Of a DNA stretch of 64,000 nt, positions 43,591-64,000 are shown one piece after another. Origin of the DNA: an uncultured Spirochaetota bacterium (GTDB taxonomy: Bacteria; Spirochaetota; Brevinematia; Brevinematales; JAOACQ01); assembly GCA_963783575.1 (NCBI GenBank), contig CAWAOD010000011.1, positions 1 through 64,000 of the forward strand, given 5' to 3'. Positions within the stretch are counted from its first letter, which is position 1; each line of letters opens with the position of its first letter. The notes beneath the pieces are model-generated. The model was not told the DNA's origin, ran no database searches, and saw nothing but the letters and a program-made list of their open reading frames with translations. A program made the translations under genes and the position numbers.

Positions 43591-43611
43591 ATGAAATGGC
43601 AAGAGGTAACC

Positions 43612-44257
43612 ATGAGCCAATACCCCGAAAAATTACCCTCCACAGAAACCGATTCCCAGGACCAGGAACACGGCGACTGGTACGACGGGGAAACAATCAA
43701 ATATTTTTCCATTGATGAAGCGGACAAGATCCTCTCCTTGGTCTCCGAGTGGTATCAACTTATCTATCTCTTCCTGTTCGAAACAGCGACCCGTATCCAG
43801 GAGGCCAGAGCAGTCCGGATTCGGGACATCGATTTTCGAAACAACACTCTCCGTGCGAATACCCTTAAGCAAAGAAAAGAAGCCTTTCGGATTATTCCTA
43901 TCTCCGACCGGCTCAAATCAATGATCCTCATGCACCAGGTTGCTGACGGCCTGACTTCCGAAGATTTTGTTCTTGCAAGGAAGCCGGGTCTGAACCCCAT
44001 TTCACGGCAGGTGATCCATGCAAGACATGATCCGGCACTGTAAAAAACTCGGTATAGAGAGAGACAAGGTTTCCCCCCATACCTGGAGGCATACCAGGGC
44101 GATCCAGCTCCTTGAATCCGGAGAGGTGGACGTGGTGCGCCTGAAAGACTTTCTGGGTCATCGTAGCCTCGCTTCAATCCTCGTCTACGTCAAATTCTCA
44201 AACAAGCATGTAAACGAGGCCGTACAGAGGGCAAATTTGAAATTGGGTCTAAGATAG
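43612..44257 (+). CDS. Tyrosine recombinase, catalytic domain only (putative TnpI-like resolvase), frameshift at ~44021
   Basis: TATRIQE (R), HTWRHT (HxxR), LGH and downstream Y. Lies inside the Tn3 IRs, 11 nt before tnpA. Confidence 0.9.
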
Positions 44258-44268
44258 GAGAATAGACA

Positions 44269-47233
44269 ATGACTTATCAACCGATTTTATCCGATACGGA
44301 ACGCTCCGGGCTTCTCGCTTTTCCGGATAATCAGGACGACTTAATACGTTACTACACTTTTAATGAAACCGACCTGTCGCTGATCCGGCAGCGTAGGGGA
44401 AACCCAAACCGGATAGGATTTGCAGTACAATTAGCCCTATTCCGTTACCCTGGAGTTGCCTTATCCGACGAGTTGAATGTCACTGAGCCGGTCCTTCAGT
44501 GGATCGGTCAACAGATTGGCGTCGATCCTTCCGAGTGGCCGAATTACGCCCTCAGGGATCAGACTCGCCGAGAACACTACCAGGAACTTCGAACCTATCT
44601 CCTATTGGATACTTTGGGATAACTCATTTCCGGTATTTGGTGAGTGCAATAACTGATCTGGCCATGCAGACAGACAAGGGGTTACTGCTTGCTTCGCATA
44701 CGATGGATATCCTTCGGGAAAAGCGGATTATCCTACCGTCATTAAATGTGATCGAACGAATTTGTGTAAAAGCCATTGTGAACGTGAACCGGCGAATCTA
44801 CCGGATCTTGGTGGAACTATTGTCTCTATCTCAAAAAGAAAATCTTGACGGGCTGTTAAAGTTAAAGCCGGAAAGCAGCATTACCTGGCTGGTCTGGCTG
44901 AGGCAGTCACCGTTCAAACCGAATTCTTACCATATTCTGGAACACATCGAGAGGTTAAAAACCTTTCAGTCTTTTCCACTTCCGGAAGGGATAGGCCGTC
45001 TTATCCATCAAAATCGTCTCTTGAAGATCGCTCGGGAAGGTGCTCAAATGACTCCACAGGACCTGGCTAAATTCTCGGATGACAGGCGGTTTGCAACCCT
45101 TGTTGCGCTGGTCCTGGAAGGAACCGCCACGGTCACGGATGAGCTAATCGACCTCCATGACAGGGTGATGATGAAGCTCTTCAGTACCGCCAGGAACAAG
45201 CACAACAAGCATTTCCAAAGCCAGGGAAGGGCGATAAACGATAAAGTTAGGCTGTATTCGAAAATTGGCCATGCGATCCTGGAAGCCAAATATAAGGGTG
45301 AGGATCCTTATACTGCAATCGAGGCGGTCATCCCGTGGGATGATTTTACCCGAAGCGTCGTAGAGGCCGAGACTCTCGCGGAACCAGAAGCTTTCGATCA
45401 TCTGTATCTGATCGGCGAACAATTCAGCACCTTGCGCCGCTACACGCCGGAGTTACTGGAAGTCATTCAGTTCCGCGCTGTTCCGGCTGCTCAATGTGTT
45501 CTGGACGCGATCGAGGTTTAAAAGGGATGAACCGGAGTAATTCCCGGAGGATCCCGCTGGGCGCGACAACTGATTTTATTAAGCCCCGGTGGAAATCCCT
45601 GATTTTCACGGATGATGGGATAGACCGCCGTTTCTATGAAATATGCGCTCTTTCTGAATTGAAAAACTCCCTCAGGTCGGGAGACATATGGGTTAAAGGA
45701 TCCCGCCAGTTCAGGGACTTCGATGAATATCTGATGCCAATGGAGAAATTTCGGGTTCTTCAAAAGGCTGGAGAATTACCGATTGAAATCGAATCCAAAT
45801 TTGATAAATATATAAAAACCCGAATGGAATTATTGGAAGATCAACTATCCACGGTCAGCCGGTTAGCAGCGGTCAATGAACTGCCTGACGCGATTATTAC
45901 CGAATCGGGGCTTAAAATTACTCCGCAGGATACTGTGGTACCCGATGCTGCTCAGGTATTAATTGATCAGACTGGAATGTTGTTGCCTCGAATCAAGATC
46001 ACCGAACTGCTTATGGACGTCGACGACTGGACGGGATTCACCCGGTATTTCGTCCATTTAAAGGATGGAGAAGCCGCAAAAGACAGGACATTACTTCTGA
46101 CCGTAATCCTGGCCGATGCCATCAATTTAGGGCTGACAAAAATGGCTGAGTCATGCCCTGGTGTTACCTATTCAAAGTTATCCTGGCTTCAAGCTTGGCA
46201 CATTCGCGATGACACATATTCCGCGGCTTTGGCCGAACTGGTCAATGCGCAGTTCAGGCGCTCTTTTGCCGGGAACTGGGGGGATGGAACAACTTCTTCC
46301 TCAGATGGGCAGCGCTTCCGTGCCAGTGGGAAAGCGGAAACGAGCGGGCACATTAACCCTAAGTACGGAAGCGAACCGGGCAGGCTGTTTTATACTCACA
46401 TCTCCGATCAATACGTGCCGTTCAGCTCCAGGGTGGTCAATGTCGGTATCCGGGATTCCACTTGCGTGCTCGATGGGCTTCTCTATCATGAGTCGGATTT
46501 AAGGATCAAAGAGCACTATACAGATACTGCCGGTTTCACTGATCATGTATTCGCTCTCTTGCATTTACTCGGGTTTCGATTTGCACCAAGGATCCGCGAT
46601 CTGAAGGACACCAAATTGTATGTCCCGGATTATAATAAAAAATATGAGGCCCTGGGACCAATGATTGGCGGCAGCATTAACATTAAGCATATCCGCAACC
46701 ATTTGGATGATGTTCTTCGTCTGGCGGCATCGATCAAACATGGGACCGTAACCGCCTCGTTGATGATCCGTAAATTGGGTAGTTTTCCTCGCCAGAATGG
46801 GCTTGCAATTGCCCTCCGGGAGCTGGGCCGCATCGAGCGCACTCTATTTATACTCGATTGGCTCCAAAGTGTCGAATTAAGAAGGCGTGTTCACGCCGGC
46901 TTGAATAAGGGAGAAGCCCGGAATGCCTTGTCAAGGGCCGTTTTCTTCAACCGATTGGGAGAAATCCGCGATCGAAGTTTTGAACAGCAACGATATCGAG
47001 CAAGCGGCCTGAATCTTGTAACCGCTGCTATTGTGTTGTGGAATACTGTTTATCTTGAACGTGCAACAGATTCACTAATGGAAAACGGAGGCGCCGTAGA
47101 TAATGATTTACTTCAATACCTTTCTCCTCTGGGGTGGGAGCATATAAACCTGACCGGTGATTATATTTGGTCACAAGAAAAGAAGCTGGAGAAGGAAAAT
47201 TTACGGCCGCTCCGGACTACTGAGAAACCTTAG
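44269..47233 (+). CDS. tnpA: Tn3-family DDE transposase (frameshifts at ~44610 and ~45518)
   Basis: [31 protein letters not shown] and [15 protein letters not shown]. The stop lies within the right IR. Confidence 0.97.
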
Positions 47234-47561: not shown

Positions 47562-47909
47562 ATGTCAAAAATAAAAATATTATCAACCATTCTGCTTTTG
47601 ACTATAAGCAGTATTTCCATCCTGAATGTACAAACTAATCCAAATTATAGCCGAAGCATGATACGTGTCACATTTAAATCTTTTCCTTATCTCGATGACC
47701 CAGCTGGAATTTCTTATAACAGTTATGGTCAACTTGGTGATTTATCTGCATATGTTTTACGTATTTACGCTAAGGCAGCTTTGAACCCCTATATTTCCGC
47801 AATGGAGCAGTCGGAAAAGATGCTCGGGGTCGGTAATATAAGTGGTGTGACAGTGTTACCAGACTCTAAAATATTTGGCAAAATTCTAGTAGTACTTGTT
47901 AAAAGATAA
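47562..47909 (+). pseudogene. Secreted hypothetical protein, apparently truncated by a Tn7-like end
   Basis: AGGAGG RBS and signal-peptide-like start. The stop codon falls inside the TGTTAAAAGATAA end at 47897. Confidence 0.55.
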
Positions 47910-48131
47910 AAAAGTTGGAAACTAGATGTCTTGATTTATCAATGTTTTTGGGTATTTTATTATTTTTAATCTAAATATAAAGTTGGAAACTATTAGAACT
48001 TCAACATCCAAATATACTCATAAAACGAATAAAAAAGTTGGAAACTTTACTCAATAAATTATTTAAAAGCCATAAACACTTAGCAGTTTCAAACTATTTT
48101 GTTCAGATCCCAACTTTTTTTTCTATCTACA
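47897..48131. mobile_element. Pair of inward-facing Tn7-like ends (235 bp)
   Basis: TGTTAAAAGATAAAAAAGTTGGAAACT with three spaced AAAGTTGGAAACT sites. Opposite end (reverse complement) TGTAGATAGAAAAAAAAGTTGGGATCTGAACAAAATAGTTTGAAACT. Confidence 0.7.
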
Positions 48132-49157: not shown

Positions 49158-50534
49158 TTAAAAATTGTTTGTCTCAATACCATAATCCGCCGATGCGTCG
49201 ACTGAACTGTAAGAATAAGCGGTCAACCGGGAAAGGTCTGCTGAAATATAAAGACAGGTCAGCGATAAGGGAGCGAAAGAATATGTGATATTCGTGTTGC
49301 CGAGGAGCCCTCCAGCAAAATTTAAAGTCACGGAATAAGGGGCCGTTTTATTCCAGTTTACACAAAAAACGCTGGCATCGCCTGCCGTGTTATTATAAGC
49401 GTAAATGCGTATATCATTTTCAGGTTCTGCGCAGAGAACCATATTTGCGAGGACATGACTGGCGAATAATTCGTAGATATAATAAATCGGCCTGGGTCTC
49501 CTTACAGGACTGGAATCCAGGAAACCCATCACGCTTCCGACTTCGCAGATATCAAATGGAACTACCCCCTGCATTCCTGGCTGGGAAGTTGACGCTCCAA
49601 GAAGATCGGCCATCCACAATCCCCCTTCATAAGTTCCCATGGAAGCTTCGGCGGTAGCTTTATTAGGGCTGCCATCCGCGCAAACATTGCATTCTCCTAT
49701 GATTAAAGGCCGTGGCTGACCGGAGCTTTCTATAATGCTGATTACAGCGGATTCAATATATAAGATGTAATCGAATTGATTCGTTACAAAATCATATGTA
49801 GCTGACAGATCGTCTGAAGGGTAGTAGTGAACTGAAACAGCATCAACATATTGGCCGCAGTATTGTAAAAATGGTTTTATAAAACCATAGCTTTGATAAA
49901 CGCTTGGGCCGGCGATTTTAATCCATGGGTACCTGCCTTTTATCGCGACGGCGACATTGGTATAGCTGTCAATATAAACATTAAAGTCAGCCACATCGAT
50001 ATTATAATAATCATCAGGCTCAGCCCCTATTTCGACCCATGAGAGAGGATAATGCATTATATCGATATAATAAGAAAGTATATTAGTCGCCCTTGCAACC
50101 CTTGCGGCTACGTTTGGTAAGCTTGAAAACGGCAGTGAAAACCAGGGCGTCGCCCCGATATAGGAGCTGTAATAAGCCAGATTATCCATAAATTCCGAAT
50201 CAACACTGTTATCGGAATCCCAGTCCGCCCCCGCACGGAGAAATTTGACATTAAGCGGCTTTATCAACGATTCCGTTCCATAACTCGCCTTCAATGTCGA
50301 GAACATTTCTCCAAAAAAAAGCGGGTTAATAGTACTGATAACGGTCGAAGGTATGATAATTGAAAGGGTGTTTGTAACCTGATACGCCGGATACTTAGGC
50401 GCGGACGTTGAAGAAGAAGCCGAAGATCCCTGGGATGAAGAACCCTGAGAGGATAATCCGGGCATGGAAGCACAAGATGATATATAAATCGCTGGAACGA
50501 GCAGTACAAAAAGGAAGAAAAAGCGTATCTTCAT
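49158..50534 (-). CDS. Lipoprotein glycoside hydrolase, clan GH-A-like (TIM barrel plus beta-sandwich)
   Basis: ISSC lipobox and Ser-rich linker. WVEIGAEPD (acid/base), IAGP, VSVHYYP and LIIGECN (nucleophile). Confidence 0.75.
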   Translation of the reverse strand: MKIRFFFLFVLLVPAIYISSCASMPGLSSQGSSSQGSSASSSTSAPKYPAYQVTNTLSIIIPSTVISTINPLFFGEMFSTLKASYGTESLIKPLNVKFLRAGADWDSDNSVDSEFMDNLAYYSSYIGATPWFSLPFSSLPNVAARVARATNILSYYIDIMHYPLSWVEIGAEPDDYYNIDVADFNVYIDSYTNVAVAIKGRYPWIKIAGPSVYQSYGFIKPFLQYCGQYVDAVSVHYYPSDDLSATYDFVTNQFDYILYIESAVISIIESSGQPRPLIIGECNVCADGSPNKATAEASMGTYEGGLWMADLLGASTSQPGMQGVVPFDICEVGSVMGFLDSSPVRRPRPIYYIYELFASHVLANMVLCAEPENDIRIYAYNNTAGDASVFCVNWNKTAPYSVTLNFAGGLLGNTNITYSFAPLSLTCLYISADLSRLTAYSYSSVDASADYGIETNNF

Positions 50535-50556
50535 AATTCCCCTCCGATCTTACTTA

Positions 50557-50598
50557 TTGACAAGATGAAATAGTTAATTTATAATTCTATTTCATCTT
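50557..50598 (+). promoter_or_regulatory. Consensus sigma70 promoter overlapped by a 12-bp inverted repeat
   Basis: TTGACA 50557-50562, 17-nt spacer, TATAAT 50580-50585. AAGATGAAATAG (50562-50573) pairs with CTATTTCATCTT (50587-50598). Confidence 0.8.
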
Positions 50599-50647
50599 AT
50601 AAAAATATTCAATAAAATCGCCAATTATAATTTTTAGGAGTTTTTTT

Positions 50648-51613
50648 ATGAAAAAAAACACAACTGGTTTTTGCTCCTTTTTATTATTTTACATAGTGAT
50701 TTCATCGGCGATTTTTTCAGGATGTTCGAATTCGCCAGGTTCTTCTTCCAGTTCTTCCAGTTCATCCAGTTCTTCAATCTCGGGATCTGTCTGGACTGCC
50801 GAAATAATTCTTCCTACCAACCGCTGGAATTCAATAACTTATGGAAATGGAACATTTGTCGCTGTCGGCCGTGATACAAATTTAGCTAATACTTCACCTG
50901 ACGGTATAAACTGGACAGCGCAAACCATGCCAACAGGTACTAGCAACTGGCAGTCAGTTACATTTGGAAACGGTACATTTGTCGCAATTGCACAATTACC
51001 AACGGCGGCCGCGACATCACCCGATGGTATAAACTGGACGGCCGGGACACTACCCGGCTCAGACTCTTGGCAGGCTGTAACATACGGTAACGGCGTTTTT
51101 GTCGCGGTTACCTGCGGTACATCGGCCGCGACTTCGCCCGACGGGATAAACTGGACGGCAAGGGCACTTCCCGGCTCACACAACTGGAAGGCAGTCACTT
51201 ACGGAAACGGCATTTTTGTCGCGGTTGCCTGCGAAGCAGGAGCGGCTACCTCACCCGATGGTATAAACTGGACGGCCGGGACACTACCCGGCTCAGACTC
51301 TTGGCAAGCGGTAGCATATGGAAACGGCATTTTTGTCGCAGTTGCCTACGGTACATCGGCCGCGACTTCGCCCGACGGGATAAACTGGACGGCAAGGGTT
51401 CTTCCCGGATTAGGTTCCTGGCAAGCAATAGCATACGGAAAGGGTGTTTTTGTTGCGGTCGGCTGCGGCATGGGAGCGGCTACCTCATCCGATGGAGAAA
51501 ACTGGGCTTTACACGCCATGCCGGACTATATTTACTGGAAATCCGTGGCCTATGGAAACGGAACATTCGTCGCCGTTCCGGACGGTAATGTAGTAGCGGC
51601 GATTTCACATTAG
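50648..51613 (+). CDS. Lipoprotein with ~38-aa Asp-box-like repeats (probable beta-propeller)
   Basis: FSGC lipobox and poly-Ser linker. Seven WxxVxYGNGxFVAV units separated by ATSPDGINW. Confidence 0.85.
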   Translation: MKKNTTGFCSFLLFYIVISSAIFSGCSNSPGSSSSSSSSSSSSISGSVWTAEIILPTNRWNSITYGNGTFVAVGRDTNLANTSPDGINWTAQTMPTGTSNWQSVTFGNGTFVAIAQLPTAAATSPDGINWTAGTLPGSDSWQAVTYGNGVFVAVTCGTSAATSPDGINWTARALPGSHNWKAVTYGNGIFVAVACEAGAATSPDGINWTAGTLPGSDSWQAVAYGNGIFVAVAYGTSAATSPDGINWTARVLPGLGSWQAIAYGKGVFVAVGCGMGAATSSDGENWALHAMPDYIYWKSVAYGNGTFVAVPDGNVVAAISH

Positions 51614-51675
51614 ATAAGGCGGTTCCTGAATTTCGATAAACTGATAGCCTAAAATTATATTTTGGAGTGTTTTTT

Positions 51676-52734
51676 ATGGAAAAGTGCGGGGCTGGTTTTT
51701 GTGCAGTTCTGATAATATATGTCTTTATAATATACGGTGGAATTTTATCGGGATGTTCAAATTCGCCAGGATCTTCATCAAGTTCTTCCACCAGTTCTTC
51801 ATCAAGTTCTTCGTCCGTTATATCTATGCCTGGTTCGACCTGGACGCCTCAGACGCTTCCATGTTATGCCGGCTGGAGTTCTGTTACTTATGGCAATGGT
51901 ATTTTTGTCGCGGTTGCAAATGGGAGTTCAACAGCAGCAACCTCTCCCGACGGGATAAACTGGACGGCAAGAACAATTCCTGAATCTGCCAACTGGAGTT
52001 CGGTTACATACGGGAACGGCCTTTTCGTTGCTGTTGCCAATAGCAGTACATATATCGGGGTGACAAATGCGGCGGCGACATCGCCTGACGGGATAAACTG
52101 GACGGTACAGAAAATGCCCTTTCTTCCAGAATATGCCGGATGGATTTCAGTCGCGTACGGAAATGGTATTTTTGTCGCAGTTGTAAATGAATTTGGAGGC
52201 AATTTAGCGGCAATCTCCCCGGACGGGTCAAACTGGACGGCCCAGACACTTTCAACAAATACCGGGTGGAGTTCGGTCTTCTATGGGAACGGAATTTTTG
52301 TCGCTCTTGCCAATACCGGTACAGGTATGGGAAATATTACGGCAACCTCCCCGGACGGGTCAAACTGGACATCCCAGACGCTTCCGGCCTTTAACTCTTG
52401 GGCTTCGGGCGTCTACGGGAACGGTGTTTATTTAGCAATTGGAGGCAACCCGACCTGGACTATATCATCCAATGGTATAAACTGGATATCCCAAAACATT
52501 TCGGCAGTCAGCTTCTATCCGATAGATTACGGCTGGATATCCTTAGCATACGGGAACGGTATTTTTGTAAGTATTGCAGACGGAAGTTCGGAAGCGGTGA
52601 CTTCAACCGACGGGATAAGCTGGACGTTCCGGACTCTTCCAACAAGCGCCGACTGGACATCGGTTACATACGGGAACGGCAAATTTGTTGCGGTTGCAGA
52701 CGGAAGCTCATTGGCTGCGATATCTTCCAATTAA
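51676..52734 (+). CDS. Paralogous beta-propeller repeat lipoprotein
   Basis: LSGC lipobox, the same CSNSPGSSSS mature N-terminus and the same repeat motif. Confidence 0.85.
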   Translation: MEKCGAGFCAVLIIYVFIIYGGILSGCSNSPGSSSSSSTSSSSSSSSVISMPGSTWTPQTLPCYAGWSSVTYGNGIFVAVANGSSTAATSPDGINWTARTIPESANWSSVTYGNGLFVAVANSSTYIGVTNAAATSPDGINWTVQKMPFLPEYAGWISVAYGNGIFVAVVNEFGGNLAAISPDGSNWTAQTLSTNTGWSSVFYGNGIFVALANTGTGMGNITATSPDGSNWTSQTLPAFNSWASGVYGNGVYLAIGGNPTWTISSNGINWISQNISAVSFYPIDYGWISLAYGNGIFVSIADGSSEAVTSTDGISWTFRTLPTSADWTSVTYGNGKFVAVADGSSLAAISSN

Positions 52735-52814
52735 CATCTTGTTTTACGGCTGTTTGATAATAAATATTCTATTAATTAGAATTTTGTTAACAATCGTTAT
52801 TTTAGGGGTTTTAT

Positions 52815-54272
52815 ATGAAAACAAGATTTTCTGGCTTTTTTATTGCCCTTATTTTATTAGTGCTTTTGTCATGCTGTTCATTAGCGCAGAGTGGAGGAAG
52901 TGGAAGTAGCAGCAATATAGGCGGCAGCAGCAGCAGTATCACAACCAACAGCTTTAGCTCATACACTAATAGCGATGGTGTTATCTATACTAATACAGGG
53001 ACTTATTGGATTTTATCATCGGGCGCCATCACAAGCGGAAATATTACAATTCTATCAAATATCAATGGGATTCCTGTAAACAGCATTGGTGACTACGCAT
53101 TTTGCGTTTGTACTAGACTTACAAACATTAATATTCCTCCCAGTATTATAAGCATCGGTTATGAAGCATTTGCTTATTGTTCCGGTCTTAGCGGAATAAT
53201 CATACCCTCCGGCATAAAAAGCATCGGCAACAGCGCATTTTATTCCTGCAACAATCTTATAAATGCTGAAATACCGACCGGTGTTACTAACATCGGCGAT
53301 TACGCATTTGCGTACTGTTCAAGTCTTACAAGCATTACCATCCCATCAGGCGTTACAAGCATAGGTAATAACACATTTTGGAATTGCACCAACTTAACCG
53401 GGATAGTCATCCCCTCCAGTATTGCAAACATTGGCAGCTACGCATTTAATTCCTGCACCAGTCTTACAAATATTGTCATCCCCTCCGGCGTTGCCAGTAT
53501 AGGTAATTATGCGTTTACATACTGTTCAAGTCTTAGTGGAACAATAAACATTCCCTCCGGAGTCAAATATATCGGAGCCGGAACATTTCAGGAATGTTCC
53601 GGTTTAAATAGTGTCAACATTCCCTCTGGCGTTTTAAGCATCGGCGACTTCGCATTTTATGGATGTTCCGGCCTGACCGGTATAGCCATTCCATCCAGTG
53701 TTACAAGCATTGGAAACGAAGCATTTTCAGGATGTACCGGTTTTACCAATATCATCATCCCCACTGACGTTATGAGCATAGGTTACTGTGCATTTTTTGC
53801 ATGTTCAAACGCAACCGGCATAACCATCCCCTCAGCCGCCACAAATATTGAGTATGACGCATTCTGGGGATGTTCCGGTATGACTGGAACTATAATCATA
53901 CCTTCAGGCGTTAAAAATATCGCAGACGGAACATTCCAGGGATGTTCCGGTGTTACCGGCTTCATTATTTCCACCGGCGTTACAAGCATTGGCACGGAGG
54001 CTTTTTCTTCGTGCAGCGGCTTTCCCGGCATAACCATCCCATCTAGTGTTACTAACATCAACATGCTGGCATTTTTTGGCTGTTCAAGCCTGACCAGCGT
54101 CACTGTTCAAGAGACTACTCCTCCGGCTTTGCAATTAGGCTCAGGGGGAACAGCAGGGGCATTTAACAATTGCGCCGGTGGATTGCAGCTCCATGTCCCT
54201 TCTGGATGTGTTTCCGCTTATCAGACGGCGACCGGGTGGAGTTCGTATTCGAATATAATAGTTTCGCCTTAA
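52815..54272 (+). CDS. BspA-type (TpLRR/LRR_5) leucine-rich-repeat lipoprotein
   Basis: LSCC lipobox. Many 23-aa IPSGVTSIGxxAFxxCxxLTxI repeats. HVPSGCVSAYQTATGW tail. Confidence 0.92.
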   Translation: MKTRFSGFFIALILLVLLSCCSLAQSGGSGSSSNIGGSSSSITTNSFSSYTNSDGVIYTNTGTYWILSSGAITSGNITILSNINGIPVNSIGDYAFCVCTRLTNINIPPSIISIGYEAFAYCSGLSGIIIPSGIKSIGNSAFYSCNNLINAEIPTGVTNIGDYAFAYCSSLTSITIPSGVTSIGNNTFWNCTNLTGIVIPSSIANIGSYAFNSCTSLTNIVIPSGVASIGNYAFTYCSSLSGTINIPSGVKYIGAGTFQECSGLNSVNIPSGVLSIGDFAFYGCSGLTGIAIPSSVTSIGNEAFSGCTGFTNIIIPTDVMSIGYCAFFACSNATGITIPSAATNIEYDAFWGCSGMTGTIIIPSGVKNIADGTFQGCSGVTGFIISTGVTSIGTEAFSSCSGFPGITIPSSVTNINMLAFFGCSSLTSVTVQETTPPALQLGSGGTAGAFNNCAGGLQLHVPSGCVSAYQTATGWSSYSNIIVSP

Positions 54273-54499: not shown

Positions 54500-54845
54500 T
54501 GTTGACGGATAAAATAGTTTTGCACTGGATCAGGCAAATATCAATCGATTATAAAGCAATTTCTTAATATCATGTGAAATAAAGTTGTGCACTGGTAAAT
54601 TCAGTAGAATGAATTAATATTAAAAAATCATCGGGCACTCTCATATACAATAAGTTAAGTTTCCTCGCGTAAAAGCCCATGAACCTTCAAAATTCAAGAT
54701 GACTAATTCAGTACACAACTTTTTTGTTCTGTAAACAACTTTTTTGGTCAGGGAACAACTTTTTTGTCCTCTGACATCAGTTCATAACTTTTTTATATAC
54801 TTCACAACTATCTTATTCAGTTCACAACTATTTTATAAACTCACA
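54500..54845. mobile_element. Cluster of three Tn7-like ends
   Basis: + strand end TGTTGACGGATAAAATAGTTTTGCACT at 54500 with a spaced site at ~54575. Minus-strand ends at 54776 (TGTCAGAGGACAAAAAAGTTG) and 54845 (TGTGAGTTTATAAAATAGTTG), each with three contiguous ~20-bp sites. Confidence 0.75.
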
Positions 54846-55839
54846 CCACCATTTTATCACTTGGTCTAATATGCCAACTTTCGACTTCTATTATCCAAGA
54901 GGGATTAATAATCTTATCATAGGGATTTTGAATAATAATTGGTTCATAATTTGGTGTTTCTAAATGAATTCTATCAACTAAATACAAAAAATATTGATCT
55001 TTTTTAAGTTTAGCAACATCTACCTCATTTCTTGACCAATAAAAATTTAGCCTTTCAGCAAATGATTTTACTTCAATATATTTGTCGATCAATTTTGATT
55101 CTTTATTTAGAAATGAAACAATATCATATCCAGCATTTACATCTATTTTACTGATGATTTTAATCTGATCAATAAAATTATGATCATTCAATCTTTGAAG
55201 TTCATAAGTTAGTACAAAATCTTCGGCATCATCTCCAAGTTCTGATTTGTATAATTGTAACTCTCTAAGACGTTCTAATGAAATAGTAGTTTTATTATTT
55301 TTAGAATAAAGTATTAAAATTGGAATGATTTCTTCTACAAAGTACTTAAGATACTGGATACTGATCAATAAAGTACTTGAAGTTCTATTATAAACAAAAA
55401 AACCGATACTAATTAATAAATTTCTTATTCCTGAAAAATCAAGGGGTATTAAATTCATACCAATAGAAGCCGTTGAAGCTATTACATCAAATTTAATCTT
55501 ATTAATATCAAGGAACCTATCAAGAACATTGTTATCAATGAATTTCTGAAATAATATCTTCAATAAAATTATTTTTAGATCATCATCATTTTTTTCTTGT
55601 GCATATAATCCAAATTCACTTAAATAAACTTCTCCATTCGAGTCTATGATCACCCAAGTTAAAAACTCAAGCAAATCTAACACACCTTTATAACAATAGG
55701 CTAGTTCTACTGATTGCCCTATACAATATCTTTCAATATCAACAACTTTCATTGATCGAGATGATAAAAGATATTTAAAGAGAAAAACAATAGATTCAAA
55801 AGAACCAAAATTATTGTTTTGTTGAATTTTGTGAAACAT
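54841..55839 (-). CDS. DUF3883 (NOV_C)-like PD-(D/E)xK nuclease with uncharacterised N-terminal domain
   Basis: G..AE.FV..YE..RL, GYDIVSF, YIEVKS, SRNE..VA and YFLYLV motifs. Confidence 0.85.
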   Translation of the reverse strand: MFHKIQQNNNFGSFESIVFLFKYLLSSRSMKVVDIERYCIGQSVELAYCYKGVLDLLEFLTWVIIDSNGEVYLSEFGLYAQEKNDDDLKIILLKILFQKFIDNNVLDRFLDINKIKFDVIASTASIGMNLIPLDFSGIRNLLISIGFFVYNRTSSTLLISIQYLKYFVEEIIPILILYSKNNKTTISLERLRELQLYKSELGDDAEDFVLTYELQRLNDHNFIDQIKIISKIDVNAGYDIVSFLNKESKLIDKYIEVKSFAERLNFYWSRNEVDVAKLKKDQYFLYLVDRIHLETPNYEPIIIQNPYDKIINPSWIIEVESWHIRPSDKMVV

Positions 55840-57783
55840 AATTGTTTATTAATGCCATAATATCATCCAAATCTGTATTTTCATTTAACCTATTAAATAA
55901 TGGTATTGGTTAATGTTCGATAATTTTTATCATACGCTCCTCTTTAAATATCAATCTATTATGGATTGTTCTATCTGTATTGTTATCTGATAGTAAATAA
56001 TAATAGTTTATTTTATCTCCTTTTTCTAGCCCATAACGATGGATACGATCTTTTGATTGAATGAAATGTGCAGCATTAAAAGTTCTTTCAATGTAAATTG
56101 CAGTATGACAAGCTTTATGTAATGAGATTGACTCTGAAATAGCGAAGGGATTTGCAATGATCACTTTAAATTTACTTTGCGGATTATGAAATTATTTAAC
56201 TATACTTTCACGCGTAGATTCAGAATTGTTATCATCATCTTGTTCAACAGGTGTAGCTCCATATAAAGTCTGATTCTCGATCCCAATAGATGATAAATAT
56301 TCTGATAGATCAAGAATATTTTTTATGAATATAGCCCAAACAATTATCTTCTCTCCTTTCTCAATCAATTTTTTTAACATCTCACCTAAATATATGAATT
56401 TCCTAGGTACTTCTAATTGATCATACGATATGATCTTTTGTATTATTAATGAATCATCAATAAAGGTTTCCATACTAATCTCTTCTTCATCAAAAAAAGT
56501 ATCTATTGGTTTTTGCAATAATGCTGGATTTGTTGATACTTGCATTAGTCTTATAAGACGAGCTTTTGTAAGAGCGTTCATTAGATTTTTTGTGGAATTT
56601 TTAGCTTTAAAAAATTCATATATTTATTTTCAATAAAGTTGTAGATTTCTCTTTGAACTGGCCCCATAGACACAATTATCGGTTCATTTTCAATAGGTTC
56701 GGGTATCTTTAAATCACTTTTACGAATACGTAAGAAAAAAGGGGAAATATTAGATAAAAGTTTTGATATACGAGGATCATTTGTATTTTGAGACATATCC
56801 TTAAGCTGATAAGGATAAAAATTTATAATATTTTTTGTTGGCCAAATAAATTGAAAAAGATTATCCATATCCTCATACCCATTTGGCGCAGGGGTACCGG
56901 TCAAAACAACCCTTGACTCACAATATTTTGATAAAGTCAACACAGAATTAGCAATTATTCCACCTTCAATATTTTTTATTTTGTGTGCTTCGTCAAGTAT
57001 GACCATTGTTCGATATTTTTTCAAGAAAAAAATTATATCATCTAATATTCCAGGTACGCCTAGATATGATAATAATGTTAATTCAGCAGGATAAGAAGAA
57101 TATAAGTGCTTTATACGTTCTGATTTAGGGACCCCTCCTGATATTCTCTTTGAGGATGGCTTATGACCAAAGCATTCAAAATATTCATTCTCCCAAGGTC
57201 CAAAAGAACTTAATGGTCCTATGATCAACAGTCTGTCAATCTTTTTCGGGTCATTATCAGGCAATGTTTTTAGATATGAATATGCTCCATAAACTATACT
57301 TGTCTTACCAGATCCTGGTACCGAAAAATTACAAGCATTTTGAGAGAAAGCCAAATGGTAAGATGATAGTAACTGAAGTGGATATAATCTTCTAGAGGGT
57401 AAATTTATGATTAGACTATCTGTAAACTTTTTAAATTGATTCAGTTGTAAATCGTCCAACTGATTGTTTCGAATATCAAAAGCTTGCTTGGAGAATAACT
57501 TAAAATTTTCTTCCTCTTGATAATAATCCCGAAGAATTTCCTTTATTGTTGACGTTGTACTTTCTGTAAAACCAAATTTTTGCAATAATTTCTGAATATT
57601 TTGTAAGACAACTTCTTTTTCCTCGGTTTCAAAAGGAATTTTAAGATGATCTTTTACTTCAATAACATGTAAATAATCCCGTAAATATATCAAAGATCTT
57701 CGATTCGATATAAGATTAATAATATCTCCTGAAAGAATATAAAGATTCTTCTGAGTATCAATATCAATTTCAATTACTGGCAC
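55811..57783 (-). CDS. SNF2-like SF2 helicase/translocase (three apparent frameshifts)
   Basis: SVPGSGKT, LDEAH, LTGTP, LMQVSTNP, ESISLH and QSKDRIHRYG are spread in order over ORFs 57783-56581, 56581-56192 and 56164-55910. Confidence 0.88.
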
Positions 57784-59070
57784 TTTTTCTTCTCTTTGCT
57801 ATCATTTTTTTAAACTCATAAGTAATACTATTAATTTCACATATTTTACTTTCTACATCAGAAGAATAAAAAGATTCGGTATCAGTATTTAAAGAATTCA
57901 ATGCATTTAATGCTTTTACTAGTAGTTCCATAGGTTGGTCTGATTTATTTAAGTCATCTAGTCTGCTTTTAGCTTTACCCAAATTCTCTTTAAGCTTATC
58001 TTCTACTAATTTTTCCCAATCCTCATCTCTACCTGAAAGTATTTTTGAAAGATCGGCTTTAGGGTTTTCTTCACGTAATTCTTCAATCGGTTTTTCTTGA
58101 ATTGTCTCAATATTATTCTTATGATTTTCTTCAAATTCTTTCCAAACTTCTTCGCGACTAAATATACTTTCATTTTTACTTGGTTTAGCTATGTTCCGAA
58201 ACTCTTTTCCTTCATACTGAGCACGAATATAATCATAACAGATTGATTTCAAAACGGATAAATCTAACTCACTATAGGGCCATTCGATAGGAGTACTTTT
58301 ATTCTCATATCGTTCCATATAACCACTTAGATTAACAAACTGGCCTTCTCTTTTATCAAGCCTTGTATAAATGCCTTCATATTTCAAATAGGAAAGATAA
58401 TCGTTCATCATTTCCATGATCTTTAACCATTCTTTTATTTGATTTTTGTCCGTGGCCATCATTTTGGCAATATCTGATTCTTCGAAACCAAATACTATCT
58501 TGAGATCTTTGCACCTTAAATATTTTTCGATTGGATTGTAATCAACCTTCTCGTCTTCCCCCATTTGATATTCGGTCTCTAATTTTACTATCTCTTTGGT
58601 TTCTGCTCCTTCAGGAAGTATTGCAGCGATAAAATATTTACAATTTTCAACATTATTATTATTTTTATTATGAATTTCTCTTGCAAGATATATTTTATTG
58701 AGAAGCATTGCTCTCCGATTTCCATCAATGATCATTCCGTCATTAGTGACAATACCATATATTCTCTGTCCATCTCTTATAAGACTATCCTCAGTGTTTT
58801 TATTTCTATCTAATTTCGAATCCCATAAGAATTTTTCAATGATCTTTTTATCATCATCTTTTTCAGCATCCAAAGGATGATCTTGTTTTTCAAATGATTT
58901 CACGAGGCTGCCAATACGACCGTTGTATTTATTATATATCAAATATTCAAGAGGGATTTTAAAAACATTAAAAGGACTAACACCTTTATAATTAATCCTG
59001 ACACCGGTCATGTATGGTGTATCATTTGCTTGAATTTCAGCCAGCTTTTTTACCCTGACTCTTTTGTCAT
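57770..59070 (-). CDS. ParB/Srx-like domain protein with helical C-terminus
   Basis: YNKYNGRI, GQRIYGIV...IIDGNRR. Has its own AGGAGG RBS and ATG at 59070, one base out of frame with the called 739-aa ORF. Confidence 0.75.
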
Positions 59071-60692
59071 TTATTCCTCCTAATTCCATATTTGAAATAA
59101 TCAGTTTCATAGTATAATAACCAATTATGATTGATTTTGGAACAGGATAAGGGATATCAGTGATCATGATTTCTCTTAAATTTTCTTTATTTAAAAAAGA
59201 TATCTTTATAAATTTCTTTACTTCTTCTAGTAATTCATTTGGTCCCATTAAATTATTTTTCTTACGATCTTTTGCTATCATACAATATACTTCTTGAAAT
59301 TTACTAAAGTTATAATCCTTACAAAGGATTCTTTTGCTAAAGGAATTGATCAATTGAAATTCAGTGTCTGTGAAAGCTGATGATTCAATTTCTGGAGTAT
59401 ATTGTGTTGCTTTCTTTCCTTGACTTCGATGTATTTCGACATCCCATTTAAACACTTTATTTAAAAAATCAGAATGATGATTAGTTAATTCAACGCGAAA
59501 TGTTTTTAATTTCAAATAAGGGATATGATATTTGAACCTACTATTAGGCAATCTTGGTTTTTCTTTAGTTATTTTTAATGTTTTATAGTTTAGATTAATA
59601 AAATCTTGATCATTATATCTTTTAATTGGAATATACCTATCATTTGCCAACATAGTTTTTTCTTCTTGTACTATTGCAGATGCAAATGCGTAAGCCATTT
59701 TTGGAGGAACTGCATTACCAACTTGTTTATATTTAATACTGATGCTTTCACCATAGAATAAATAATCGATCGGGAAGCTCATTAAACTAGCCACTTCTCG
59801 AATTGTAGGAGCTCGATATTTACTAATATTAAATCCTAATATCATTGATTCTCTAGAACTAAATGTCAATGTTGCCATCACGGTTCTTGCAGGTTTGTTA
59901 GTGTTTTCAGGGAAAGACATCCTTCCCATATAACCCTTATCTTTTTTTAAGCCTTTCAGCTTTTCTCCATTGATATTTCGCAATCTCATGGATATAATGA
60001 TGGTCTGTCATATTTGATGATAAAATTGAAAGGTTTTTGTAATTAGGATCATTGACAATATTATCCAAATTTTGATTTGGATTACCTAAAGAATCAAGAA
60101 TCTTTTTTAAAGGAATAAGTTCTTGATCACATTGAATAATATATGAAGGTTTAGGAAATTCTCCACAAATAAACCGTTTTCTTCTGGATGGTACACCAAA
60201 ATATTCTGCATAATAAACATGACTGTTATCATTCTTAACAGTTAAAATAAAATTTCCATCACAGTCAAGTTCTGCAGCAGTATAGTTATCTTGAACGAAA
60301 TTTTGGATATTTGGAACATTTTCCATAATCCAATACTTTAAAATTGAATCTTTTTTATATTTCTTTCTTGCAATAATACGCAAAAATGCCTTGACAAGAC
60401 TGACTCCTTTAGATTTATCTGCTTTACCAGATTTATTAGAATTTGAAAAAGCGACACAAGGAGGGGAACCAATTATTATTTCAGAGTCAGGGATTATATC
60501 ATTAAATTCCTTTTCTGGAAGCATTGATAGTTTAACAACATCTCCCTGATAAGTATAACACGTAGGGTGATTAGCTCTATGAGTTTTTACAGCTGTTGGT
60601 GATATATCTATAGCCCAGATTATCTCGAAACCAGCATTTCGAAAACCCTCAGAAAAACCTCCAGCTCCACAAAAAAGATCAACTACCCTCAA
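59040..60692 (-). CDS. DNA (cytosine-5) methyltransferase with long C-terminal extension (frameshift at ~59945)
   Basis: DLFCGAGG (I), GSPPC (IV), ENV (VI), PSRRKR (VIII), REVASLMSFP (IX) and QVGNAVPP (X). Confidence 0.92.
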
Positions 60693-60713
60693 AGTATTTC
60701 TCCCAAGATGACA

Positions 60714-61151
60714 TCATCCATAAATTTTTTTTACTTGATCAATATACAACTGTATATTATTATTAATCTTACACTCCCACATCACCAATACTTTCCATCC
60801 TTTATCTTTGAGTTGTTGTATTTTAAAATTATCTCGTTCAACGTTTTTTTTAAACTTAGAAATCCAAAAATCTGTATGAGATTTTGGAATAGAAGGATTG
60901 CAAAAAGGACATCTGTGCCAAAAACAGCCATTTACAAATATGGCAATCTTTCTGCCAGGATAGCAAATATCTGGTTTACCCGGCACTTTTCCCCAATGCA
61001 ATCTATAACCTTTCATTTTATTAACAAAAAGGCTCTTTCTTAATATTATTTCTGGTTTAGTGTTTTTATTCTTTATTGTACTCATTATTCTTGATGTTAT
61101 TTCTTTTTCAGGAATAGGTGCTCGACCATCCCTTATGTATTTATCGCGCAT
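60714..61151 (-). CDS. vsr: Very-short-patch repair endonuclease
   Basis: MSTIKNKNTKPE, GKPDI, FVNGCFWH and GWKVLVMWEC. Confidence 0.93.
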   Translation of the reverse strand: MRDKYIRDGRAPIPEKEITSRIMSTIKNKNTKPEIILRKSLFVNKMKGYRLHWGKVPGKPDICYPGRKIAIFVNGCFWHRCPFCNPSIPKSHTDFWISKFKKNVERDNFKIQQLKDKGWKVLVMWECKINNNIQLYIDQVKKIYG

Positions 61152-61381
61152 TAAATTTAATATCATAAATATTCAACATCCTTTTGATTTTACATATGTA
61201 ATAAAAACTTCAAATTAAACAAAAAAATCATGTATCTTATTATTGATATTATAATTAGATTATAAATACTTGTCAATTTATTGTATCTCAACTTAATTAT
61301 TAAACGAATTTATAGAATTATTTTATGTCAGTTTAAGTTTAGTCGAATATGATATTAACTCTCCATATAATCACTATTTTA

Positions 61382-62983
61382 TTAAATTATAGAAAAATAA
61401 TTAATAATTATTTCCTCAATCCTTCTTCCCCAATCTTCAATACTTTGTCCTTTGACATGCTTAACAAATTTATATTTAAGACCTTCCTGCCTATTTAGAA
61501 AAGCAGTATTCCAGTGAAAATATTTATCTGCTAACATATTCAGATTATCAATAATTACATTACTATAATCATTAATTTCAAATCTGAATTGAAAAACCAA
61601 GGTAGATGCTGATTCACCATTTATTCGATTGATCTCAACAAGATAACATGTACCTATATCACTACCATCAATTCGGACAACAGTGCAGATCCTGCCGTCA
61701 CTGGAAATCCTTTTTTTACTATAAAGATTAATGAAAGTAATGGATATTTCCCAGTTTTTGTGTTTTTTCCGGATATAATCAATAACATCTAAAAAGTCTT
61801 CCAGACCTGGAAAAGTTTTATCCGCCAATCGGTCAAATGATAAAAACTCAATCGACCTGATCTGCCCGCCCCTTGTCCAATCCCTGACAGTTCCAATCAA
61901 TTCAGGCGATACATTTGAAGGTCCCTCTTGTGATGTTTTTCTGGCTTTATATTTATTATCCCGATCCCGTATTTTTATAACGATAGGTGCTCGTTTAAAA
62001 CTTGCTCCTAAATGACCGGATGTTACTTTGACAGTTTTTTCCCACCTGTTCGCGTCTTCTCCGGTCTCGTCAGGAAATATTTCCGGAAAACCATCAGAAA
62101 CAGATCCATTTTTATTATTTCCATCCGGGACATCTTCAAATACCGGTTGAATAAGATTAGGGGATTTGTATTTTATTTCACTGAAAGGATGCACTAACCG
62201 CTTTCTTTCAATTAGTTCTAATATAAGGAAAATGTCATTATATTTCAATCCCCGGTATCGCCAGATTTCACCAGGAATCACTGGAGGATCTGTTACAACA
62301 GGTATTCCATAAGAAAAACCTTTCCTAGGGTCACCGTATCTCCTTATTGCCTCAATATAAATGTTCCTATAAACAGAACACCAGGCATTATACCCTTTTT
62401 CATAAAAACGCAGCCAGGTAAAATATGAAATGGCATCATCCCTGAGTAAAATTTTAGGAAAATCAGGGGTTAATGTTATTTCCAGATTTTTATTATTAAT
62501 ATTATAAGATTCGATGAAAAAATCCAATCCGCTTGTTTCAAGTATCCGGTTTGCAAGAAGCCGGTAAGGAGTTAGAATTTTGCGGACTATTTCCATATAA
62601 GGAATATAATAATTAATTGAAGATATTTTAAAACTGCAAAGTAACTGGTTCCTGTAAAATGTATTATTATAAAATGGGTACAATTCCTTTGGAATATCTA
62701 ATCCTGAATTTTTGCTGAAATCAACATCACCTGGGAATATCAGAATTCCTCCTGAACCGGAAGCTTCAGATATAGCAGTTCCGTCCATATATTTACACCC
62801 TGTGCGAAGTATTGGCAAATAACCAATGGGTAGTCTTTCATCACTGAAACTCCCGTCCTGTCTTCTAAAGAGAACCCTGATATCCCATTGCTGCTCACTG
62901 TTCAAGACCGGTGAGCCAAGCCAGTATAATTCCACTTTATCACCAGGATCGAAATTCCAAGGAGTTATCCTAAAACCACTCAT
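61382..62983 (-). CDS. tnsE: Tn7-like TnsE-family target selector
   Basis: 533 aa directly downstream of tnsD. N-terminal WNF..GD.VELYWLGSP and C-terminal LVEINR...SASTL resemble TnsE of Gram-positive-type Tn7 elements, from recall. Confidence 0.7.
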   Translation of the reverse strand: MSGFRITPWNFDPGDKVELYWLGSPVLNSEQQWDIRVLFRRQDGSFSDERLPIGYLPILRTGCKYMDGTAISEASGSGGILIFPGDVDFSKNSGLDIPKELYPFYNNTFYRNQLLCSFKISSINYYIPYMEIVRKILTPYRLLANRILETSGLDFFIESYNINNKNLEITLTPDFPKILLRDDAISYFTWLRFYEKGYNAWCSVYRNIYIEAIRRYGDPRKGFSYGIPVVTDPPVIPGEIWRYRGLKYNDIFLILELIERKRLVHPFSEIKYKSPNLIQPVFEDVPDGNNKNGSVSDGFPEIFPDETGEDANRWEKTVKVTSGHLGASFKRAPIVIKIRDRDNKYKARKTSQEGPSNVSPELIGTVRDWTRGGQIRSIEFLSFDRLADKTFPGLEDFLDVIDYIRKKHKNWEISITFINLYSKKRISSDGRICTVVRIDGSDIGTCYLVEINRINGESASTLVFQFRFEINDYSNVIIDNLNMLADKYFHWNTAFLNRQEGLKYKFVKHVKGQSIEDWGRRIEEIIINYFSII

Positions 62984-62987
62984 TTTC

Positions 62988-64000
62988 TCAGCCTACCTTA
63001 TCTATAGAATAAGTATGATTGGAATATCTTTTTATTTCTTCTTCTATTTCTTCATTAATCTTTGAAGAATAACCCGGTCTGATCCCTGCTTTACGTATGA
63101 TTTCCCATTTTTGTAAACATTTTCCATCAGAATTTAATTCTGCGGCAACCCACCTGATCCTTCTTATCCTGAATTTTTCCACTGATTCTGTAACTTTTTT
63201 TATATATACCATTGTATCTGGCATTTTATCGGGATGTCTATTAAGCCAGACCCGTGCTCCGGATTTTCTCCCGATTACATTTACCGTTATTCTTTCCGGT
63301 TTTAACTTACTTTCAAGCATCGCTTTTGTAATAAGTTTTGCTTTTACAAGGGTTTCCCTATCCCTCCGGGTCCAGTCGATTCTATGTGGATTATATTTAT
63401 TTATAACAGAGCATGGGGAAATATTATCCAGCCAGGCTTTGTCGTTCCTGATAAGCCAGGAGAATGTTTTATGTTTTTTGTTTGCCAGGATTGTTCTATT
63501 TACACCGGGATATTTATTTATTATGTCTACCCATTCATTCCTGTATTTTTCCTGTTCCGGAATGTTACAGGATTGTGTTTCATGAAAGCGTTGTTCGGTT
63601 TTTATCTCGTTTAATTTAAGCCATTTTATTTTAAAAAAATTCCTGGAATCCCCGCACAAATAGCGCATCATAAGAAGATGGCGGACAGGATGGAATGATT
63701 TCTCATGTTTTCTTATTATTTTTATCGGCCAGCTGTGAAGATCGGCAATTGAGAAATCCGATTGAACCATTCTGAGAAACTCGCTTCCATAATAATTATG
63801 GAGATCATTTATAAACTCGTTTAGGAAATGTCTCCTGTCTTTCTTTTTTATTAAACCTCGATCCGCAAGTAAATAAAGGTACTTGCGCCTGAAACCCTCT
63901 TCAATATCCTGCGATCTCCTGATTATTTCATAGTTATCATAGACCCATTGTATATCAGCCGCTAATCCATCAAGTTTCTCAATAATTTTATCCCCAAACA
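62988..64000 (-). CDS. tnsD: TniQ/TnsD family protein, 5'-partial
   Basis: The frame is open to the window edge. FHPVRHLL, WLIRNDKAWL, RIDWTRRD, KPERIT and ESVEKFRIRR are typical of the TnsD C-terminus. Confidence 0.85.
   Translation of the reverse strand, partial: FGDKIIEKLDGLAADIQWVYDNYEIIRRSQDIEEGFRRKYLYLLADRGLIKKKDRRHFLNEFINDLHNYYGSEFLRMVQSDFSIADLHSWPIKIIRKHEKSFHPVRHLLMMRYLCGDSRNFFKIKWLKLNEIKTEQRFHETQSCNIPEQEKYRNEWVDIINKYPGVNRTILANKKHKTFSWLIRNDKAWLDNISPCSVINKYNPHRIDWTRRDRETLVKAKLITKAMLESKLKPERITVNVIGRKSGARVWLNRHPDKMPDTMVYIKKVTESVEKFRIRRIRWVAAELNSDGKCLQKWEIIRKAGIRPGYSSKINEEIEEEIKRYSNHTYSIDKVG

Follow-up and report, generated by a model that had tools for sequence, protein, structure and literature searches.

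The window considered here is a stretch of 64,000 nucleotides from an uncultured Spirochaetota bacterium (assembly GCA_963783575.1, contig CAWAOD010000011.1, positions 1 to 64,000). Near its right end it carries an operon of five genes, all on the minus strand and starting 215 bp past a tnsE-like gene. Their products were compared with the profile libraries PADLOC-DB 2.0.0, Pfam and NCBIfam 20.0. The vsr gene (60714-61166) is an open frame of 150 amino acids for a very-short-patch repair nickase (TIGR00632, 121 bits at a cut-off of 97.85). The C5 cytosine methyltransferase gene (approximately 59060-60692) gives two separate PF00145 matches (E 6.6e-30 and 5.6e-08), and the motifs FCGAGG, PPC, ENV and GNAVPP are readable in its translations; no other C5 methylase was found in the host genome. 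Then follow a ParB-fold gene (57770-59070), an SNF2-type ATPase (55811-57783; PF00176, E 1.5e-18; about 655 amino acids in relatives) and an open frame of 332 amino acids (54841-55839) for a PD-(D/E)xK-type nuclease of the NOV_C (DUF3883) family. The NOV_C match (PF13020, E 7.2e-13) covers residues 205-291, the protein has the motifs GYDI and IEVK, and the N-terminal 190 or so residues have no recognised fold.

The ParB-like protein, which stands alone at about 430 amino acids in relatives, gave zero matches in a Pfam scan and was recognised by its fold. Its AlphaFold model has a predicted local distance difference test score (pLDDT) of 91.5. The top Foldseek rows were ParB, Noc and KorB proteins (best E 4e-4), and the comparison with PDB entry 5K5D gave a VIA Z of 9.4 and a root-mean-square deviation of 4.0 over 209 aligned residues. 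The fold thus resembles that of ParB CTPases, yet the motif reads DGNRR; we take a GERR-type Box II to be the mark of chromosome ParB CTPases, and DGNRR to be nearer to general ParB/Srx enzymes.

A preliminary description of the locus had listed these five co-oriented genes after tnsE, and all were recovered, four by profile (Vsr, C5 methylase, SNF2 and DUF3883) and ParB by fold. The genes lie as placed there, but vsr starts at 61166, 15 bp beyond the proposed end of the operon. Its AT-richness was likewise borne out (G+C content 29.5% versus 37.4% for the genome). A sigma-70-like promoter consensus (12 of 12 positions; 61248-61276, minus strand) is found 82 bp before vsr; this is a pattern match only, the best among 55 sites where 45 are expected by chance.

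The window's copy is damaged. Compared with intact relatives, the methylase gene is split by a frameshift near a run of seven A (59942-59948). Through a second frameshift near 59060-59070, the start codon of ParB falls out of frame and the 3' half of the methylase is joined to ParB in an open reading frame (ORF) of 739 amino acids. The SNF2 gene is shifted in frame near 56610 and interrupted by in-frame TAA codons at 56192-56194 and 55910-55912, and it aligns in two frames to an intact relative (locus L003) with 59-60% identity. The background for such lesions was estimated by comparing paralogues across 1.33 Mb of genome sequence, with a detector that may miss events and that counts true pseudogenes. 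It found 124 sites with a frameshift and 94 with a stop, or 0.093 and 0.070 per kb, so that about 1.0 lesion is expected in the 6.3-kb operon. The five observed are about five times this background (Poisson P 0.004). Because of these three frameshifts and two stops, which disrupt methylase, ParB and SNF2 alike, we consider it probable that the decay is real and the copy an inactive pseudogene.

It is unlikely that the five lesions are assembly errors and the operon intact in the cell, a question independent of the mechanism. Errors of this kind would fit the genome-wide frameshift background, which falls partly in ordinary genes, as well as the homopolymer runs at two of the three operon frameshifts and the further split genes near this contig end. 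Besides the excess over background, however, two of the lesions are in-frame stops, and the same window keeps giant ORFs of 2,851-5,120 amino acids open. The same truncated proteins appear in a Logan assembly as well, although it probably derives from the same reads; for the two Logan-only entries the longest contig is 20,564 bp. The sole independent read run had a low share and yielded four short pieces, none of which spans a break, and no RNA data set was listed as containing the sequence. Recoding of stop codons was rejected, as 17 of 2,230 long coding frames continue in frame past a stop with a late start, and there was no TAA bias. A natural methylase-ParB fusion is unsupported: ParB stands alone in 119 of 120 relatives among the matches listed, the exception being that of the window. 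Elsewhere a single protein of similar kind (P0272) was seen, and a ParB-SNF2 protein (P0397) looks like a deletion product. As a separate observation, an aminotransferase-like host gene (contig positions 73038-74163) lies in two ORFs and is part of the background of about 0.09 frameshifts per kb.

Family, subtypes and breakage pattern

For the ParB-like protein, 1,735 clusters of homologues were counted at 90% identity, and a profile search gave 1,692 representatives at 50%. Genome loci were collected by scanning one genome per species and keeping the best 80 of 244 stretches. The order ParB, SNF2, NOV_C was found in 75 of the 80; the other five are interrupted by contig ends (three) or have a split SNF2 gene (two). 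A C5 methylase is present at 77 of the 80 loci and at all 54 with full flanks, whereas Vsr is optional (23/80). Methylase, ParB, SNF2 and NOV_C follow each other at 43 loci. The five-gene synteny put forward earlier thus holds for the three-gene core and the methylase, but the exact five-gene order occurs at only 9 of the 80.

The predicted catalytic motifs are conserved. Among full-length relatives, D/E-GNRR is kept in 78 of 78 ParB proteins, Walker A, DExH and motif VI in 74, 75 and 75 of 75 SNF2 proteins, and GYDI and IEVK in 56 and 64 of 71 nucleases. The hosts fall into 11 labelled phylum-level groups, including one archaeon. The operon was not found in 100 relatives of the window's host (0/100), and 400 genomes of its phylum gave two weak partial matches only. 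It was also found on 19 viral contigs, 16 of them with the second subtype described below. The spread of the family is patchy.

Two subtypes can be distinguished. The one seen in the window (47/80 loci) has a methylase of about 540-570 amino acids with a C-terminal extension. The second (29/80) has a different C5 methylase family and a DpnII/BanI-like gene just before ParB. The extended methylase and the DpnII/BanI-like partner overlap at no locus, and the two methylase families never co-occur. In a quick ParB tree the DpnII/BanI-like group forms one side of a branch with support 88. In the alignment column into which the PD aspartate would presumably fall, the DpnII/BanI-like partner has S, N, G, P or similar, and the protein seems to lack the catalytic aspartate. 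Altogether 33 of the 80 loci carry a Type II endonuclease-like gene (29 DpnII/BanI-like, two MutH/Sau3AI and two BglII-like), and at the four MutH/Sau3AI or BglII-like loci these genes look intact or partly degenerate. No separate restriction endonuclease gene was detected at the window locus in the ORF list, Pfam or PADLOC, so the earlier remark that a classical restriction enzyme is missing applies to this locus but not to the whole family. PDB sequence searches with the ParB, DpnII/BanI-like, TnsE-like and nuclease proteins returned nothing significant.

The C-terminal extension of the window's methylase is a domain of 190 amino acids (approximately 59072-59641) with a confidently predicted fold (pLDDT 88.7). 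Structure searches gave no clear match, the top values being a Foldseek E of 0.13 and a VIA Z of 5.0, and hhalign against the other partners stayed below 1.1%. An atlas match to DUF2971 was of low recognition and serves as a lead only. A likeness to methyl-CpG-binding domains was discarded, the rows at E >1 being at chance level. When metagenomes were searched with this domain alone and the best 80 of 150 stretches were kept, a ParB gene was found at 78 loci, in 75 of them within 150 bp; in the other two the contig ends within 300 bp. Where the flanks were long enough (n=62), SNF2 was present at 60 and the nuclease at 58. The extra domain of the methylase is obligately linked to the ParB gene.

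Gene integrity was surveyed at 179 loci, with ParB and SNF2 taken together as the motor. Methylase, ParB and SNF2 are all intact at 145. An intact methylase beside a non-intact motor was seen at 11 loci: five are at or near contig ends, and at six (L049, L061, L137, L148, L177, L178) ParB or SNF2 is broken or deleted inside the contig. Conversely, an intact motor without a whole methylase was seen at six loci (L002, L034, L053, L054, L097, L151), in all of which a contig end lies at or runs through the methylase gene. At L134 the methylase is internally broken and SNF2 is split too, as in the window. Contig ends truncate all the other loci. None of the 179 combined an intact motor with an internally broken methylase. 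In these small numbers, the asymmetry is the pattern expected if the motor and nuclease are toxic when methylation is lost.

Some loci carry further genes. AspBHI-like methyl-directed endonuclease genes lie near four of the 80 genome loci (L016, L017, L037, L040) and eight of the 80 metagenome loci (within L112-L191), often directly after the nuclease gene. At L038 a second ParB-like gene (approximately 14200-15500) is found directly after the nuclease gene. A pair of a helix-turn-helix regulator and an IrrE-like metallopeptidase (CapH/CapP-like; clusters c7 and c8) accompanies the second subtype at 18 loci within L045-L081.

The Tn7-like element and the rest of the window

The operon is part of a Tn7-like element of 21,325 bp, both ends of which were found, with the 5-bp target duplication GTACT. 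The left end (47892-47990, plus strand) consists of GTACT at 47892-47896, a terminal TGT at 47897 and TnsB-type sites. The left-end site sequence recurs three times at the right end (contig position 69221, in the region 69130-69226) and is followed there by the same GTACT. The TnsE-like gene (61382-62983, minus strand, 533 amino acids) resembles plasmid proteins that are annotated as TnsE (24% identity, E 1e-8) and has zero matches in a Pfam scan; in two related elements it sits after tnsD too. The 3' part of tnsD (62988-64000, minus strand; PF15978, E 1.3e-50) belongs to a gene of 527 amino acids that runs to contig position 64571, and tnsC, tnsB and tnsA follow beyond the window. Here tnsB is split by a frameshift, whereas it is in one frame in all three related elements fetched.

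The insertion point of the element lies within the final codons of an rlmD/TrmA-type RNA methyltransferase gene, which gains a new stop from it. One of the three related elements fetched has the same neighbour; in genome G011 an rlmD gene with 68% identity lies beside tnsA in the same arrangement. Tn7 itself attaches at glmS, and a literature search for an rlmD/TrmA-type attachment site returned no match. The element shares with Tn7-like transposons of the TnsABC+D+E type all five tns genes, TGT...ACA ends with repeated TnsB sites, the 5-bp duplication and defence cargo, and differs in its insertion site and in its frameshifted tnsB. The operon had earlier been viewed as Tn7 defence cargo. It does lie in such an element here, but the link is particular to this locus: since no tnsA-D match was found with the window's proteins across 179 operon-related loci, the transposon carries the window copy only, and Tn7 as a vehicle of the family was rejected. 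A related Tn7-like element in genome G019 has a vsr gene 2 kb past tnsE (L198:5159-5545) and no ParB gene.

A 346-bp stretch (54500-54845, no strand assigned) lies between two inward-facing Tn7-type ends, with six sites on the right and two on the left that are unlike those of the main element. It reaches into the final codons of the nuclease gene, a target duplication was not found for it, and it may represent either a remnant or a mini-element that is non-autonomous. The remaining cargo (49158-54272; G+C content of the left cargo 42.5%) encodes a glycoside-hydrolase-39-like protein, two repeat-rich putative lipoproteins and a BspA-type leucine-rich-repeat protein. Just outside the left end (43591-47233), a tyrosine recombinase gene that is split and a Tn3-family transposase spread over three frames make up a second decayed mobile element. 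At 36900-38900 there is a Type I HsdM-type N6 DNA methylase (602 amino acids, PF02384), apparently without an in-frame 5' part and with no partner genes seen. The plus strand of 630-36908 holds giant ORFs of 2,981, 5,120 and 2,851 amino acids with long internal repeats and a GC skew of up to 0.56; by impression only, they may be modular biosynthetic genes.

Proposed mechanism and alternatives

We propose, with a probability of about 55%, that intact relatives of the operon are methylation-protected, ATP-driven restriction modules of the type of AbiR, a system of the Lactococcus lactis plasmid pKR223 that is compared below. According to this model, built from domain content, predicted structures and analogy, the C5 methylase would mark a site in host DNA, and Vsr, where present, would repair the T:G mismatches arising from methylation. 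The unmarked site on incoming DNA would be recognised by a site reader. The ParB-fold protein and the SNF2 ATPase would load there and translocate along the DNA, and the NOV_C nuclease would cut it, which would protect the cell against phages. The reader would be exchangeable: in the window's subtype it is probably the methylase, by means of its C-terminal domain, and in the sister subtype it may be the DpnII/BanI-like protein that seemingly lacks the catalytic aspartate.

We favour restriction because the core gene order, the obligate C5 methylase, the conserved catalytic motifs and the link between the C-terminal domain and ParB all point to it, as do the non-overlapping subtypes, the breakage asymmetry, the parallels with AbiR, and the patchy spread with occurrence on viral contigs. 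The earlier idea that m5C marks self keeps indirect support (methylase co-occurrence, breakage asymmetry, and the toxicity of AbiR without its methylase). Several points weigh against restriction. AbiR is classed as abortive infection instead of restriction. The breakage asymmetry consists of 6 versus 0 cases, some of which may be assembly errors, and three loci were left uninspected at which the methylase is partial or missing and a contig end interrupts the motor. As the subtypes follow the ParB tree, their mutual exclusion may reflect one historical event. The reader role of the C-terminal domain is a guess because it has no clear structural match, and a genome-wide word-avoidance analysis yielded no motif assignable to the operon methylase. 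Finally, the four MutH/Sau3AI or BglII-like loci fit a backup role beside an ordinary Type II system as well.

A guard leading to abortive infection is possible, though we regard it as doubtful. In this case the core would attack host DNA once methylation drops or phage replication yields unmarked DNA, and the infected cell would die. The accessible text of PMC13064643 presents AbiR as an abortive system that lowers the replication of phage DNA and becomes toxic when its methylase is missing. The breakage asymmetry fits a guard equally well, and full Type II-like pairs adjoin some loci. However, the methylase is the only partner at 47 of the 80 loci, of which 45 offer no recurring endonuclease gene (c5, MutH and BglII clusters) to be guarded, apart from L024. 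Moreover, tight one-to-one linkage to a methylase usually points to discrimination between self and non-self by site, which speaks against a guard.

It seems improbable that the operon is merely an addiction module of mobile elements, with the methylase as antidote, the motor and nuclease as toxin, and little effect on phages. Its position on a transposon here, its occurrence in viral contigs, the plasmid location of distant relatives and the toxicity of AbiR without methylase (PMC13064643, accessible text) would agree with addiction. Against this, AbiR was found as a phage-resistance trait according to the same text, four conserved multi-domain proteins would be a costly toxin and antidote, and the window copy decayed in place. 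Very improbable is modification-dependent restriction, in which the core would target foreign-modified DNA and the methylase would serve another purpose. NOV_C also occurs in the PD-T4-1 and Tiamat models, and the AspBHI-like genes near some loci are methyl-directed nucleases, but the obligate methylase linkage and the lack of any locus with a broken methylase and an intact motor are unexpected for a Type IV-like system.

Beyond restriction by single modules, we tentatively suggest that ParB-SNF2 might be a general restriction engine with exchangeable specificity readers, namely a C5 methylase with a C-terminal docking domain whose fold would be undescribed, a catalytically dead Type II endonuclease or the sigma-like subunit of AbiR. 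Where a site is unmethylated, the reader would load the ParB-fold clamp, which the SNF2 motor would drive together with a swappable NOV_C or PLD nuclease. This is rather unlikely to hold as a whole. The family opens a direct test of restriction versus suicide, of the role of the ParB fold in defence and of the source of specificity. For this purpose it offers more than 1,700 clusters of ParB homologues, intact copies in harmless cultured strains (for instance the Paenibacillus loci L004 and L009) and a simpler build of four genes. The window copy itself, probably a pseudogene, is of little weight, and intact relatives are more useful. New here are the obligate link between the extra domain of the methylase and ParB, the breakage asymmetry and the full anatomy of the transposon.

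Comparison with AbiR and other known systems

PADLOC 2.0 gave no system-level match for the module, only generic ones. The earlier exclusion of DISARM II and BREX was upheld in the scans. With DISARM class II the module shares a C5 methylase and an SF2 helicase, but DrmB (DUF1998), DrmC (PLD) and DrmE were not found at the locus, DrmB and DrmC are absent among the recurring neighbours, and the DISARM models gave only weak, generic matches to DrmD, DrmA and DrmMII. The BREX proteins PglZ and BrxC were not detected with Pfam, PADLOC or NCBIfam. Hma and the DUF499-centred, BREX-related Type-1 systems share an SNF2 helicase, a DUF3883 nuclease and an adjacent methylase (PMC3710099, PMC12839542, accessible portions). 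As described in those portions, they have a DUF499 AAA+ ATPase, an N6 methylase and a helicase-nuclease fusion, in contrast to the ParB-fold protein, C5 methylase and separate nuclease of the module; neither HmaB/HmaC nor DUF499 was found in the window or its relatives with Pfam and PADLOC. Type II m5C restriction-modification cassettes with Vsr have the C5 methylase and Vsr in common with the module, which differs in its ATP-driven three-gene core and in having no standalone site-specific endonuclease at the locus. Papers on DUF3883-SNF2 fusions, BREX-related and Dnd systems (PMC3710099, PMC3632139, PMC12839542, PMC10853773, PMC11529989, PMC6458302) do not describe this module in their accessible parts. 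No description of it was found in open-licence papers or bioRxiv either; subscription papers, supplements or models from after 2023 could contain one.

The closest named relative is AbiR (AbiRa/b/c with LlaKR2I), known since 2000, so the preliminary view that no named system matches holds at the level of PADLOC but overlooks a system with the same ParB-SNF2 core. The accessible text of a 2026 review (PMC13064643) describes AbiR as a phage-resistance trait that is abortive and reduces phage DNA replication. Of its three subunits, one (AbiRa) is sigma-70-like, one of ParB type (AbiRb, listed there as AbiRii) matches 5K5D, and one (AbiRc) joins PLD and Snf2. AbiR depends on the LlaKR2I methylase, in whose absence it is toxic, and acts by a mechanism that the review calls unclear. 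Its record, AF216814, contains consecutive ORFs of 820, 398 and 850 codons (PMC8765062, accessible part). The window's ParB shares 5K5D as its best solved-structure match, and both systems have an Snf2 ATPase directly after the ParB-fold gene and a link to a methylase.

Our comparison draws on the published description and on AbiR-like plasmid loci. No protein named AbiR was among the 120 matches listed, and no AbiR-named PADLOC model appeared, even when the AbiR-like plasmid proteins were scanned. The plasmid loci reached by the window's proteins include L085 (a sigma-like protein of 864, a ParB of 405 and a helicase of 620 amino acids) and L087 (dcm, a Sau3AI-type gene, ParB of 421 and SNF2 of 883). 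Their ParB proteins have 26-36% identity to those of the module (hhalign 99.6% over 370 columns) and their helicases about 30% (E 1e-61 to 1e-81). In the quick ParB tree, 81 close rows are separated from seven plasmid rows by a long branch with support 100. Among other distant plasmid loci, L084 (dcm, ParB, PLD-SNF2, vsr) encodes a 247-amino-acid protein (8104-8847) that matches only the C-terminal half of the Sau3AI-type model and is a candidate site reader. On plasmids of lactic acid bacteria (L082:4008-12022 and L086:1804-10924), distant ParB-helicase pairs follow genes of the Type III restriction-modification type, with no nuclease gene.

There are also differences from AbiR. The module is without the sigma-70-like AbiRa of about 820 amino acids: no such ORF lies at the locus, no neighbour family of that size recurs at the 80 loci, and the sigma-like protein of L085 has no match to the proteins of the window or of L003. 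Its SNF2 protein of about 655 amino acids has no N-terminal PLD nuclease, the nuclease being the separate NOV_C protein. Indeed, neither the window's SNF2 nor that of L078 matched PLD or PbeA models, whereas AbiR-like plasmid helicases of 857 and 862 amino acids match PLDc_2 and PbeA. The methylase of the module is co-transcribed, of another family and longer by 190 amino acids, and Vsr is often added. Because it is without the sigma-like subunit and the PLD domain, two defining features, the module should not be filed as AbiR; it is AbiR-like at its core, yet an unnamed separate variant. If the engine with exchangeable readers is real, it would constitute a class of restriction systems built on a ParB clamp, of which AbiR would be the first, mislabelled member.

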